A stretch of 46,783 nucleotides of DNA from an uncultured Kiloniellales bacterium (GCA_964196275.1 CAXMSN010000004.1:1-46783), one strand, 5' to 3'. Positions 1 through 5,442 are shown, numbered from the stretch's first letter. Notes: generated by a model not told the origin, from the letters alone. A program made the numbers and translations.

Positions 1-27
1 GACTAGGTAGAAACCGTACGCTTCCAT
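1..27 (-). CDS. Possible N-terminus of a gene running off the left edge (MEAYGFYLV...)
   Basis: Minus-strand ATG at 27 preceded by the SD-like GGGGGTG; open to the window edge; only 9 codons visible. Confidence 0.3.
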
Positions 28-226
28 GTGACACCCCCAGGTGTTAGTTCGTGTAGCCAACGTATCGGGCCGCTTCGATGGCGACTATCGGGGAACACCC
101 CTAGGTCAAGCGTTGATCGAAACGGAAGCGCATATGCGGCATGTGTGCGGTTCGTCTGGTGCGCATGGACGCTGCGGGGCGGAAGCCGTCTTGGAATACG
201 CGGCACCGCCGTCGGTTGGTGCATGT

Positions 227-745
227 ATGAGCCACTCTGAACTTCTTGCATACCGCACGCAACGGGACGACTTCTTTAGACATGCCCACGAATCGCCGGT
301 GCCGCACGAGGACCGTGCGAGTTTCCCCGGCCTGGCCTTCTTCGACTCCGACCCGAATCTCGTCTTCGCTGTGGCGCTTGACCGTGTGGAACCAACCGAG
401 GTGACCATCGCCACGACCACTGGCGATGAGCGGACCTACATGCGCGTCGCGACCGCGACGGTGAAGATCGAGGGGGAGGAGACAACCGTCGCTCTGTACT
501 CGACAGGCCATGACAGCTTGTTCCTCCCGTTCCGCGATGCGACCTCAGGGAATGAGAGTTACGGGGCCGCCCGCTACCTCGACATCCAACCCGAGGGCGA
601 TGGGAACGTAACGATCGACTTCAACTACGCCTACGCCCCGTTCTGCGCATACAGCGACATCTACTCGTGTGCCTTGCCCCCTGCGGAGAACTGGCTCACC
701 GTGCCGGTCCGAGCCGGTGAGCGGCTGGCAACGTCCGGATCCTGA
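227..745 (+). CDS. DUF1684 domain-containing protein
   Basis: Family motifs LFLPFRDATSGNESYGAARYL and IDFNYAYAPFCAYSDIYSCALPP. Start moved to ATG 227 (MSHSELLAYR..RDDFF), in frame with ORF 41..745. Confidence 0.85.
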   Translation: MSHSELLAYRTQRDDFFRHAHESPVPHEDRASFPGLAFFDSDPNLVFAVALDRVEPTEVTIATTTGDERTYMRVATATVKIEGEETTVALYSTGHDSLFLPFRDATSGNESYGAARYLDIQPEGDGNVTIDFNYAYAPFCAYSDIYSCALPPAENWLTVPVRAGERLATSGS

Positions 746-1348: not shown

Positions 1349-1433
1349 TTCTCGAACTCCCTCCTATTTCTGCTGTGACTGTACCACCGGTCATGCCGGC
1401 TCTGTCGTGAACACTCACCGGTAATCTGACGCC

Positions 1434-2420
1434 GTGTTCGACTTCGTAAACGCACCACTGCCGATCCGTGGCGACATCCCTGCAACCCTTCGCAACGAGT
1501 GGGGCCATCTGGCAGCACCAGGTGCGACACTTTCGTCACGCGAGCGAATCGCTGTCGCCGCTGTGTCACGCTCATCTGTCGACGGTGGCGGAGTTCCGGC
1601 ATCGGGGCTCGATCCGTCGATTGACGATCTCGCCACCACCCTGATGGCGGACCCCGGCGCCGTCGACGAAGCCCTCGTCCGCTCAACAGCTGCCGCCGTT
1701 GGTGACCCGACGACGGTGGAGGTGATCGGGATCGTGTCGCGACTCTCTGCAGTCGACGGGTTCCACATGGCTCTTGCCGTGCCCATTGAGGCGCTGCCCG
1801 ATCCGGTCGAGGGTGACCCCACAAGGGACATAACGCCGGACCTGAAGCGACGACGCACGCACGTTCCCATGCCTCCTGGACCGATTCCTGTATCGCTCGA
1901 CCTCGCGCCCTCTGAGGGAATCGCAATGGAGGACCTTGCGGGTCCCCTGTACATGACGTACTCAGACATGGCACACGACGACTTTGCACGCAGTCCGGGT
2001 CTGAACCGCTCACAGATGGAACTGATCTCATCGAGAACGTCACACAGGAATGGCTGTTTCTACTGAACGATGAGCCACGTGCGGATGCTCCGTGGGAGCT
2101 CCATCGCCTTCGGTTATGAACTCGACATCCGGGCAATCGCCGACGACCGTTTCCACAGCGGTGTGCCAGGTGGCGATGTGATCCTGCCGTTCGTTGATGC
2201 CGTAATGACCGGGACCGCATCAGACCAGCGGTTGGCCCGAAACGCCATCGTCGATGCCCTCGGCCCCGAGTCTCTTGTTGACGCCGCCGGGGTCTTTGCG
2301 AACTTCCAGATGATGAACCGGGTGGCAGAGGGAACGGGAATCCCCGTTCCGGGTGCAGCCATCGAACGTGAATCGGAGATGGTTGAAGCGCTCGGCCTCA
2401 ACAGCTTCTACAAGCACTGA
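1434..2420 (+). CDS. AhpD/CMD-related alkylhydroperoxidase-like probable selenoprotein (328 aa, UGA at 2064-2066 read as Sec, CxxU)
   Basis: ORFs 1434..2066 and 2070..2420 share a frame and are separated only by TGA-ACG. Readthrough gives MELISSRTSHRNGCFY-U-TMSH, which matches the AhpD E-x-S-x2-N-x-C-x2-C-x3-H motif. A hairpin follows the UGA and there is no SD before 2070. Confidence 0.8.
2081..2107 (+). promoter_or_regulatory. Candidate bacterial SECIS hairpin
   Basis: GCTCC-GTG-GGAGC (2087-2099), extendable by GAT/ATC and GC/GC pairs. The G-starting apical loop follows a 25 nt spacer after the UGA. Confidence 0.6.
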
Positions 2421-2436
2421 GTCCACCATCCCAATG

Positions 2437-2470
2437 GAAAGCGGGCGCCACCGAAAGTGGTGACGCCCGC
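2437..2470 (-). terminator. Intrinsic terminator-like hairpin between convergent genes
   Basis: Minus strand reads GCGGGCGTCACC-ACTTTC-GGTGGCGCCCGC followed by TTTC, just after the MMPL stop. Confidence 0.65.
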
Positions 2471-2481
2471 CGCTGCAGCGA

Positions 2482-5211
2482 TCAGACGACGGTCACTCGT
2501 GCGTGCTCCAGTTCCTTCACGGGCTGGGGACTGTCCGTCGATACCAACACCAAGAGGCTCGGGAGAACGAGCAGCGCCACTGCAAGGGACAGCACGATCA
2601 TCACGGCCGTGAGAACTCCGAACGTGGCGAAGATGGGCGTGGGAGCCATCGCCATCACTGTGAATCCGAGCACCGACGTGACGGCTGACAGAACCAGTGC
2701 CCCTCCCGTGCCAGCACCCGTTCGCCTCACGGCGTCGAGCCGTGAGCCATCCACACCCAGTTCCTCGCGGTACCTCGCTGTGAAGTGCGTCGAAAAGTCG
2801 ATGCCCACGCCGACTGCGATTGCCGCGATCGTCGCTGTCACCACATTGACCGTGTACCCGAACGTCGCCATGAAGGCGTACACGCCGGTAACGACCAGCC
2901 CGATCGGAAGAACGGCAACAAGCGCATATCGAATCGATCGGAGCATCACGCTCGCAAGCATGAATGTCAGTAGTGCAGCGAGTGGAAGGGACACGAGCAT
3001 CGAACGGGTGAACGACTCCATACTGACGAATTGGGCAATGACCTCGCCAGACACGAGGGCAGTGACACCATCCGAAGATGCTTCGTAGTCAACCGCCGCT
3101 GCCTCCATCGCCTCACGGACCGGAACAATCACCGCTCCATCCGTGAAACTTCCGACCTGGATGCGCACCGCTGTCGCATAGCCAGCATCCGTCTCCGCGA
3201 TGATGGACCGCACGTCGTCGACCGACACCGCAACGTCTCCGTTCGGACTCGGGACACCATTCGCCTCTACGTACCGGTAGATCGCGGCCACGCCAGCAGC
3301 GCTGTCGGGAAGTGAGTCACGATCGGCATCTTCGAGCGACGGACCATCAGCTTCGATGGCCTCTACAGCTACGGGCGCAGCCATGACCATTCGTACAACG
3401 TCCCCGGCGTGCAAGCCAACGATCAGTTCGCCGCCTGCCTTCGTACCGAATTCGGCATCGGAAGCAGCGAGGTCGGCGACCAAGTCATCAATGCCAGCCA
3501 GGTTCGCAGGATCGGTGAGGTCACCCTCGATGAACACCAGTGATGAGCCCTCACCGCTGGATGGGAAGTGCTCAGAGACCCGTTCGATTGATTGAGCGAA
3601 ATCGGTCTGTGAGGAAAGGAAGTCCTCGATCTTGAAACCCGACTCCACATCCGACGCCTTTGCAACACCGAGAACGGAGACGAGGATGATGACCGGGATG
3701 GTGATCACCTTCCACTTCGCAAGCGTCGACACCATCGACCCGACAGGAGCCAGGCCATGCGCTGCACCCGTGTGACCCGAAACCAGTTGCTTCCCCCGGG
3801 CTTCCGCACGACGATTTCGTCGTCTGGTCAGACCGGCTGTTATCAGGATGAACACAATCGAGAAGATCAGGAAAGCGAAGACGCCCGCGGTGGGCATCAC
3901 AGCACCAAGTGCCACAGAGAGGCCTCCCACGATGGCCATCGCGACCGTACCAATCGCATACATGGGCTTCGAGAAACGCTTGACAGGGTCGGGACCCACG
4001 AACGATTCGAGCCCGACGGTGATCCTCGGAGCTAGTTGGCCAAGCAGGAGATACGCCCACGCAAGAGCGATCGCCGCACCGATACCGAACTGGATGATCG
4101 ATTCCGTCCCGGATGCTGCATTCGCAAGGAAGGCAGCGACTGATGAAGAGACCGCAAGGAACATCGCCGTGAACACCGCTGTCAGTCCGGCGGGGTACGC
4201 CTTCTTTACTCCCATCCCATGTTCGACCTGCATCTCACGGACGCGGCCGACGCCGTGGATGTAGAAGTCGACACCGAAACTGATCATCGCTATCGGAACG
4301 ATGAAGGCAAGCAGAAGTGAGCCCATCTTCAGTCCGATGAGGGCGGCAGTTCCGTAGTAGGCGAGCGCGGTGGCCGACAACCCGGCAGCGACTATCGCCG
4401 CAGACCAGAAGGACCGGTGAACCACCGCGACGAGAAGGACGATCAGACCGACGGCGAGAAAGATGAAGGGTGCAGACTGCGTGGCGGCTTCTTCGAACGT
4501 CGTGTCTCCATCGATAGCAACGCCTATGGAATCGGTGTGCACCGCGCCAATTCGGAATTCAGCCTGTACCTCGCGGAGCCACAGTTCACTCTCCGCGTAG
4601 CTGTCGAACGAACCTCCATCGAAGACGACTTGGGTAATGAACGCCGGAGATTCGAACCTGATTACTCCCGCCTCATCAACGAACGAGTCGGCCTGCTCCG
4701 ACAGGGTGAACTGGATGTACTCGACCTCGGAACCTGCACGAAGCGTTGAAGTGATCGCATCGACGATCTGTACATCCGTTGAGCCTTCGATGCCGCGTTC
4801 GAGTTGAGAATCAACGACATCGGCGATGGACATGACACCGGGAACCGTCGCACCAGCATCGCGGTCGAAACGCTCGACGAGGTGTGACGCGTGGACGGCA
4901 TCAGATCTCACTCGGGTGGATGCCGCATGCCACTCCCTCATCACGTCGGCTGTAAGGACGTTCGAACCATCGTTCGTAGCCTCGACCAGGAACGACGCTG
5001 AAGAGATCGTCGATTCGCCGCTGAGCGCGACATCTGAACGTTCCATTGTGTCGAACACCTGTCCCGCAGGATCGAAGTTCGGCTCGCTTGTGTCCGCTAT
5101 CACCGGCCCGACAAGGCCGAGTGCCACAACCAGCAGCATCGCGCCGATCGTGACGATGCCGATCCGCCGACTCACCAGATCGAACAATCTGTATGTTCGC
5201 TTCTTCTCCAT
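2482..5211 (-). CDS. MMPL/RND family transporter (909 aa)
   Basis: Two repeats of TM + large loop + 5 TM; motifs FGVDFYIH..GRVRE and GIDFSTHFTARYREE. Start at ATG 5211 after SD GGAGGAG. Confidence 0.9.
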   Translation of the reverse strand: MEKKRTYRLFDLVSRRIGIVTIGAMLLVVALGLVGPVIADTSEPNFDPAGQVFDTMERSDVALSGESTISSASFLVEATNDGSNVLTADVMREWHAASTRVRSDAVHASHLVERFDRDAGATVPGVMSIADVVDSQLERGIEGSTDVQIVDAITSTLRAGSEVEYIQFTLSEQADSFVDEAGVIRFESPAFITQVVFDGGSFDSYAESELWLREVQAEFRIGAVHTDSIGVAIDGDTTFEEAATQSAPFIFLAVGLIVLLVAVVHRSFWSAAIVAAGLSATALAYYGTAALIGLKMGSLLLAFIVPIAMISFGVDFYIHGVGRVREMQVEHGMGVKKAYPAGLTAVFTAMFLAVSSSVAAFLANAASGTESIIQFGIGAAIALAWAYLLLGQLAPRITVGLESFVGPDPVKRFSKPMYAIGTVAMAIVGGLSVALGAVMPTAGVFAFLIFSIVFILITAGLTRRRNRRAEARGKQLVSGHTGAAHGLAPVGSMVSTLAKWKVITIPVIILVSVLGVAKASDVESGFKIEDFLSSQTDFAQSIERVSEHFPSSGEGSSLVFIEGDLTDPANLAGIDDLVADLAASDAEFGTKAGGELIVGLHAGDVVRMVMAAPVAVEAIEADGPSLEDADRDSLPDSAAGVAAIYRYVEANGVPSPNGDVAVSVDDVRSIIAETDAGYATAVRIQVGSFTDGAVIVPVREAMEAAAVDYEASSDGVTALVSGEVIAQFVSMESFTRSMLVSLPLAALLTFMLASVMLRSIRYALVAVLPIGLVVTGVYAFMATFGYTVNVVTATIAAIAVGVGIDFSTHFTARYREELGVDGSRLDAVRRTGAGTGGALVLSAVTSVLGFTVMAMAPTPIFATFGVLTAVMIVLSLAVALLVLPSLLVLVSTDSPQPVKELEHARVTVV

Positions 5212-5442
5212 GATCTTCTCCTCCAGAGGCGGACCTCGTACATCGAGATCTCTGATTTCCTGTGGCAAGAGTGCTGGAATCACGCAGTCGTTCCTATCGG
5301 GTATGAACCCACACCAACCCTGAGACCCTGAGGCCGGGGTCAGGGAATCACCGATAACCAACGGATCCGGATTGCATCGCGTCCCGAGACCAACTACAAC
5401 GGTGTCAGCGCCACATACGCAAGCGAGAGGTGGGCCCACAAA

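Follow-up and report, generated by a model that had tools for sequence, protein, structure and literature searches.

A UGA codon within an AhpD-type redox motif probably encodes selenocysteine in a two-lobed bacterial protein of the NF041238 family

Selenoproteins related to AhpD were described in the Sargasso Sea survey of 2005, which reported AhpD-like proteins with a CxxU motif, where U is selenocysteine (Sec), together with a set of four sequences called 'hypothetical protein 1' that carry CXXU and for which a selenocysteine insertion sequence (SECIS) was drawn (PMC1088965). AhpD-like families are listed among the commonest marine selenoproteins in the Global Ocean Sampling (GOS) survey (PMC2398784), and a table in a 2026 review equates 'hypothetical protein 1' with the NCBIfam entry NF041238 (PMC13188914). 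That entry is an equivalog-level model named 'AhpD_rel_CFYUT, alkylhydroperoxidase-related (seleno)protein', and its name carries the motif that we find here. In this work, we analysed a stretch of 46,783 nucleotides from an uncultured Kiloniellales bacterium (GCA_964196275.1, CAXMSN010000004.1:1-46783; the whole stretch is referred to as the window), in which positions 1434-2420 very probably constitute a single gene, whose product would be a selenoprotein of 328 residues in the NF041238 family, AhpD-related and with a CFYUT motif.

Two open reading frames (ORFs) lie on the plus strand at 1434..2066 and 2070..2420, in the same frame and separated by a single TGA at 2064-2066. The first encodes 210 residues and closes with the codons AAT GGC TGT TTC TAC TGA, which read N-G-C-F-Y-stop, and the second encodes 116 residues with the N-terminus M-S-H-V-R-M-L. 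When the TGA is translated as U, the 987 nucleotides yield 328 residues that run ...N-G-C-F-Y-U-T-M-S-H... across the junction, and a second TGA at 2418-2420 ends the frame. Reading the sequence confirms the starting point of the original prediction, namely that two same-frame ORFs are joined at a UGA that falls on the second cysteine of the AhpD/CMD motif, with the histidine of the motif encoded after the stop. Contigs from other metagenome runs span 2064-2066 and are unchanged there, among the differences listed.

Taken as a single chain, the read-through product matches NF041238 end to end at 215.5 bits (cut-off 175), residues 11-326 being aligned to positions 1-356 of the 357 in the model; in a six-frame search of its own genome, the locus scores 195 bits and is the only match. 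The sole Pfam domain seen is CMD (PF02627), at 29.3 bits against a gathering threshold of 23 and over residues 175-221, and the N-terminal lobe (approximately residues 1-135) has no Pfam or NCBIfam domain match of its own. Two other models, AhpD proper (TIGR00777; 15.1 bits, cut-off 191.95) and peroxid_rel (TIGR01926; 31.9 bits, cut-off 81.8), were tried and rejected, as the protein is related to both but a member of neither.

The conservation of the internal codon was followed in 41 genomes, comprising the genome under study and 40 relatives. NF041238 scores above its cut-off in 19 of these, and the match contains one in-frame TGA in 18 and none in the remaining one (G026). A motif scan of the 19 loci finds one site in each, with TGA in the identical codon in 18 of 18 and with TGC in G026, which reads C-F-Y-C. 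The TGA-bearing orthologs share 29-60% identity with the protein under study, and the Cys form shares 28%. Neither TAA nor TAG occurs at the internal codon in any of the 19 orthologs, whereas the terminal stops differ (11 TGA, 8 TAA or TAG); this outcome answers the refuting condition set with the original prediction, of homologs with UAA or UAG at this position. A partial copy at a contig end in G001 (115 bits, one TGA) was excluded by the length filter. In a wider sample of 401 genomes of the phylum, NF041238 scores above its cut-off in four, all in the order of the genome under study.

The position itself is that of a redox residue. A profile built from the 19 orthologs matches the PDB entries 6k40 and 2pfx over its C-terminal half (E about 2e-12), and its U column falls on the second cysteine of the N-x-C-x-Y-C-x-x-x-H motif in solved AhpD-type proteins. 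The catalytic-type constellation of E196, C208, C/U211 and H215 is invariant in 19 of 19 orthologs, and S203 and N206 are likewise invariant, as are W23, R46, E96 and D108 in the N lobe. The prediction of selenocysteine at UGA 2064 is supported by a TGA at this codon in all 18 Sec-type orthologs and by the Sec machinery encoded in the genome (see below). As a separate observation, the relatives also hold many shorter AhpD-like paralogs that score below the NF041238 cut-off, match only model positions of approximately 215-342 and contain one in-frame TGA each; these are probably other, single-domain AhpD-like selenoproteins.

Protein collections show how such genes are recorded at present. In a collection of 5.8 billion proteins, 42 of the 42 matches obtained by scoring the 8000 candidates with the most shared words are N-terminal pieces of 187-258 residues, which cover 57-64% of the query and are cut at the UGA; wherever these pieces are named, the name is 'hypothetical protein'. 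A profile search of 1.84 billion cluster representatives (50% clusters) returned 2816 proteins at E ≤ 0.001. Among the best 150 of these 2816, 102 end right after N-x-C-x-x, as expected of a cut at the Sec codon, and 35 are full length with CxxC (CFYC in 23). A further 4 have another residue according to the script pattern and were not inspected, and 9 fit neither pattern, one of which ends in ...SECFY and is hence also cut there. It follows that a single Cys protein can span the two halves and that Sec forms predominate. The original prediction had presented the gene as hidden and split by gene calling. The split stands, as the public calls are cut at the UGA, but the family is not hidden, being curated as NF041238 and reported since 2005.

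The same data bear on whether the locus holds two genes, one for a 210-residue protein that ends at UGA 2064 and a separate one for a 116-residue protein that starts from ATG 2070. This arrangement is exactly what ordinary gene calling yields, and Sec insertion is always in competition with some termination at the UGA, yet we regard two genes as very improbable. The stop would fall inside the catalytic motif N-x-C-x-x-U-x-x-x-H, and the methionine that would start the second protein, at +2 from the UGA, is present in this copy only, with V, L or F in the other 17. By direct reading, no purine-rich Shine-Dalgarno run was found in the 12 nt (ttctactgaacg) before ATG 2070, in agreement with what had been claimed for the second ORF. 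That 35 of the best 150 representatives are single full-length CxxC proteins, and that one hidden Markov model and one confident fold span both parts, also argue for a single product.

The original prediction also pointed to a SECIS-like hairpin. The sequence GCTCC (2087-2091)-GTG (2092-2094)-GGAGC (2095-2099) places the first loop G 25 nt after the A of the TGA, with 2087-2090 paired with 2096-2099 as the core of the stem. In an alignment of the 18 Sec forms that covers 54 nt starting with the UGA, numbered from the T of the TGA, the positions A22, U23, G24-C25-U26-C27, G29 and G33-A34-G35-C36 are invariant in 18 of 18, and RNAalifold returns a stem of 4-5 bp. Two loci that were found later and are absent from the alignments, L038 (from a record labelled Acidimicrobiia, 57% identity, and the only locus returned by a related-locus search of genome contigs) and L039, have C-F-Y-U and the same hairpin. 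Contigs from three other metagenome runs carry G>A at 2095, the one variable loop position, with the stem and the UGA unchanged among the differences listed.

Synonymous codon choice separates this constraint from that on the protein. Of 40 alignment columns in which 15 or more of the 18 Sec forms share a four- or sixfold degenerate residue, only two use a single codon, Leu+8 (CTC in 18/18) and Ser+11 (AGC in 18/18), and these two codons are the two arms of the stem. The other six conserved Leu columns use 3-5 codons each, and the other conserved Ser column has AGC in 1/18. In the Cys form (G026), the site reads GCA CTG AGA GCG GCT and the hairpin cannot form. The 24-nt minihelix at 2081-2104 folds at -11.3 kcal/mol and makes up 94% of the ensemble, with a z score of -2.01 and 6 of 200 shuffles as good. 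The nucleotides of the hairpin are thus more conserved than the protein sequence alone would demand, and the prediction of a SECIS-like element gains support from the invariant core, the synonymously fixed stem codons and the absence of the hairpin from the one Cys-form DNA.

The genome under study (2.09 Mb in 139 contigs, 82.75% complete) also encodes the Sec machinery that the original prediction implied, with tRNA-Sec, selA, selB and selD all above their cut-offs. The tRNA-Sec exceeds its gathering score of 47 with 70.4 bits and is called by ARAGORN as tRNA-SeC with the anticodon tca (UCA). The selA (394.1 bits) and selB (317.2 bits) matches are adjacent on one contig (L009/L010, G000:C112:931-4021), with selA at 931-2250 and selB at 2279-4021 on the same strand, and look like a selAB operon. 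The selD match (402.7 bits) contains one in-frame TGA in the context ...H-G-A-G-U-A-C-K..., so that SelD is itself a selenoprotein here. At the selD locus (L017, G000:C67:60046-63972), the UGA lies at locus position 1531 and is followed by a 7-bp hairpin, GGCGCAG-GUU-CUGCGCC, at +30 to +46, counted from the T of that TGA; the loop opens with G-U both in this hairpin and in that of the gene under study.

More widely, selA is present in 19 of 19 genomes that carry the NF041238 family, and scores above its cut-off in 38 of the 41 genomes of the relative set and in 260 of the 401 sampled genomes of the phylum (tallies that include the unpublished genomes G027 and G038, plus twelve more in the 401-genome sample, none of them among the aligned orthologs). 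Sec use is thus common in this sample and not sporadic, contrary to what had been supposed for the phylum. A 2026 preprint describes Sec machinery across another order of Acidimicrobiia (10.64898/2026.04.03.716425).

These results also weigh on the idea that near-cognate tRNAs or a reassigned code decode the UGA as Trp, Cys, Gly or some other residue instead of Sec. Low-level read-through of UGA is widespread, and selenium at residue 211 is a prediction from sequence, but we hold this reading to be highly unlikely. TGA serves as an ordinary terminal stop in 11 of the 19 orthologs, interchangeably with TAA and TAG, homologs have a redox Cys at the position, the genome encodes a dedicated tRNA-Sec along with selA, selB and selD, and the conserved hairpin follows the codon in the TGA forms only. 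Least credible of all, and in our view almost certainly wrong, is a pseudogene, in which a TGC-to-TGA nonsense mutation would have struck a Cys-type AhpD-related gene and left the downstream frame to decay: the two codons are one base apart and the G026 ortholog does have TGC, but TGA stands at this codon in all 18 orthologs at 29-60% identity, the 116 codons downstream remain open and conserved, with G277, N295 and R296 invariant across the 19 orthologs, 102 of the best 150 representatives are cut at the same place, and the genome has the Sec machinery.

For the full-length protein, AlphaFold2, run with a 19-sequence alignment, gives an all-helical model with a predicted local distance difference test (pLDDT) score of 95.8 and a predicted template-modelling (pTM) score of 0.94, in which an extended linker spans approximately residues 115-158. 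With VIA-align, AhpD-type chains superpose on residues of approximately 138-321 (Z 9.2-12.4), and the best whole-model match is human Sestrin2 (5t0n_A; Z 16.8, root-mean-square deviation 3.4 Å over 239 residues, 9% identity), which covers 1..304 of the model. In a sequence comparison by hhalign, aimed at a possible internal duplication in which the N lobe would be a degenerate copy of the C lobe, the two lobes give a probability of 11% and an E value of 0.0027. The claim of a 328-residue, two-domain protein is supported in the form of a chain with two lobes.

Upstream of the gene, the TAA at 1422-1424 within the hexamer TAATCT is an in-frame stop that bounds the ORF, and GTG 1434 is the sole in-frame start between this stop and the invariant Trp23. 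A TANNNT hexamer shortly before the start codon is a signature of leaderless genes in Actinobacteria. For each ortholog, we chose the in-frame start nearest to 22 codons before the invariant Trp; with this choice, 16 of the 19 orthologs have TANNNT 6-8 nt upstream of the start, against a background rate in these loci of 0.36% (144,226 positions), and the upstream regions are otherwise unalike among the 19 orthologs (L018-L036). Neither a full sigma-70 consensus nor an intrinsic terminator was found in 1200-2700. The mRNA probably starts at or next to GTG 1434 and would be leaderless, as had been proposed from the TAATCT 6 nt before the GTG, a proposal that the ortholog comparison supports.

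From these elements a mechanism can be put forward. SelB-GTP-Sec-tRNA(Sec) would bind the hairpin on the translating ribosome and insert Sec211, to give one chain whose two helical lobes may imitate an AhpD-type dimer. The redox centre would lie in the C lobe, as Cys208-x-x-Sec211 with Glu196 and His215 acting as the relay; the roles of this pair, of C/U211 and of C208 we take to be those known from M. tuberculosis AhpD. By analogy, the Sec211 selenolate would attack an oxidised substrate, which may be a hydroperoxide or else a partner of the peroxiredoxin type in its oxidised form. A selenenylsulfide might then form between Sec211 and the resolving thiol of Cys208, to be reduced in turn by a cellular thiol system.

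Several points count against the reading of positions 1434-2420 as one selenoprotein gene with a SECIS-like hairpin. The four core pairs never vary, so that covariation cannot support the hairpin; the lower pairs 20-39 and 21-38 are each kept in 13 of 18 Sec forms, pair 20-39 shows 2 double changes and 5 unpaired cells, and 65 of 500 shuffles reach the covariation score. The conservation of the hairpin, on which the original prediction was to be judged, is present, with a core identical in 18 of 18. The 54 nt after the UGA fold no better than shuffles (z -0.60; 48 of 200 as good), and a search of 1900-2500 against all Rfam families, with E up to 10, gave no SECIS and only chance-level hits to MIR1846 and Chloroflexi-1. 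A single Cys-form DNA sequence serves as the negative control for the hairpin, and M-L-R is also present in several Cys-form representatives, such that the conservation of ATG-CTC-CGN may be partly at the protein level. As for the protein, Foldseek against the PDB gave no match at E ≤ 0.001, the best being an AhpD-core protein at E 0.024, and the chemistry and substrate proposed above would be carried over from knowledge of the AhpD family. Finally, 20 sequencing runs are listed for this stretch, with DNA from marine sediment among them and none of them RNA. Set against the ortholog, hairpin-codon and machinery evidence, these points leave a single Sec-containing product as very probably the correct reading, and the features that it comprises are collected in Table 1.

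Table 1. Coordinates of the proposed gene and of the features assigned to it, counted from the first nucleotide of the window
Feature	Position	Strand	Basis or remark
-10-like hexamer TAATCT (TANNNT), candidate promoter of a leaderless mRNA	1422..1427	+	6 nt upstream of GTG 1434
Complete gene, very probably for a selenoprotein	1434..2420	+	GTG start, 328 codons including predicted Sec211, terminal TGA 2418-2420
N-terminal helical lobe, approximately residues 1-135, without Cys	1434..1838	+	AlphaFold2 model; aligns with the first lobe of Sestrin2
C-terminal AhpD/CMD-like lobe, approximately residues 138-328, with E196, S203, N206, C208, U211 and H215	1845..2417	+	Pfam, PDB profile and structure alignment
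Cys208 codon TGT, predicted resolving partner of CxxU	2055..2057	+	Sequence and ortholog alignment
UGA predicted to be read as selenocysteine, Sec211	2064..2066	+	Ortholog codons; aligns with the second Cys of the AhpD-type CxxC
SECIS-like minihelix GGA(U)GCUCC-GUG-GGAGCUCC	2083..2102	+	17-36 nt after the UGA; U2086 bulged, loop G 2092

The surroundings of the gene offer little guidance as to its partners. Upstream are a DUF1684 gene at 41-745 on the plus strand (146.3 bits) and a divergent ORF of 92 residues, and downstream is a convergent gene at 2482-5439 on the minus strand, which encodes an MMPL-family membrane protein of 985 residues (67.6 bits). Flanking ORFs are common to at most 5 of the 19 loci, all of these being closer orthologs (50-60% identity), so that there is no operon partner hinting at a substrate. 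Between the convergent selenoprotein and MMPL genes, a GC-rich hairpin at approximately 2441-2470 has 7 + 4 pairs around a mismatch and lacks a T-run, and the predicted fold of the 61-nt spacer has -27.3 kcal/mol (z -2.83). A rough scan of the entire window for further TGA codons that lie in frame within a redox-like context returned 69 candidates, mostly off-frame noise.

The practical consequence of this analysis lies in annotation. Public records hold this gene and its relatives as truncated pieces of approximately 210 residues, and selenoprotein-aware gene calling with NF041238 would repair many of them. With this gene, a lineage labelled Acidimicrobiia, in which the Sec machinery is near-universal (38/41), gains a further well-supported selenoprotein, and constraint at the RNA level on the synonymous sites of a coding SECIS is cleanly illustrated. 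The gene opens no new question, as the 2005 study already described the family together with its CxxU motif and SECIS.

How closely the locus resembles the systems already described depends on the part that is compared. For the RNA element, the type bacterial SECIS is that of E. coli fdhF. The hairpin shares with bacterial SECIS elements its place in the coding sequence shortly after the UGA, a small apical loop with a G and, in this copy, a bulged U; it is a predicted element and, unlike the usual ones, has a conserved core of only 4 bp that is sequence-invariant rather than covarying. The loop G is given as the common feature of bacterial SECIS in the Sargasso Sea study (PMC1088965).

For the protein, the solved AhpD/CMD structures (M. 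tuberculosis AhpD 1knc, D. radiodurans 6k40 and the 'peroxidase-related' 2pfx and 2prr) are like the C lobe in their helical fold, and their N-x-C-x-x-C-x-x-x-H motif aligns here with U at the second Cys. They are, however, single-domain, oligomeric Cys proteins of approximately 145-197 residues, whereas this one is a 328-residue, two-lobed chain with a predicted Sec. That layout, in the structural model a single chain with two AhpD-like lobes, is shared with Sestrin2 and with prokaryotic fused double-AhpD proteins; the latter, of which E. coli YciW is an example, have their pair of AhpD-like domains arranged as in Sestrins and are described in PMC11429811, which also gives a GATOR2-binding acidic hinge (DDYDY) in the C lobe as a Sestrin-defining feature. 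Identity to Sestrin2 is 8-9%, and in the protein under study the redox motif is in the C lobe, with Sec, in which it differs from Sestrin2. The likeness to Sestrins is a resemblance in architecture, not membership.

Taken together, these comparisons allow a joint reading that we offer tentatively, considering it possible although unlikely. A-U-GCUC-N-G-N3-GAGC might be an unusually small SECIS that the SelB of this lineage would recognise by sequence and not by shape, and that would thereby dictate M-L-R-x-S in the protein; the protein in turn might be a selenium-bearing version of the prokaryotic 'fused double AhpD' that resembles Sestrins, but its redox centre would occupy the opposite lobe from that of Sestrin2. 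Neither a sequence-recognised SECIS nor an opposite-lobe double-AhpD protein with Sec was found in the parts of the literature on the family that are cited here.

Among selenoproteins, the AhpD-like 1 and AhpD-like 2 families of marine bacteria (COG2128/PF02627) share with this protein CxxU, an AhpD-type domain and abundance in marine metagenomes; they are short and single-domain, and NF041238 is tabulated as a family separate from them (PMC13188914). With NF041238 itself, the likeness extends over the full length and includes the exact C-F-Y-U-T, the CxxU and a SECIS-like stem-loop after the UGA, with no family-defining difference. The hairpin has a 5-bp stem and a GUG triloop here, and a 4-bp stem and a 5-nt loop in most NF041238 relatives. 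The gene is therefore not new, but a member of a known and curated selenoprotein family, first described in 2005.

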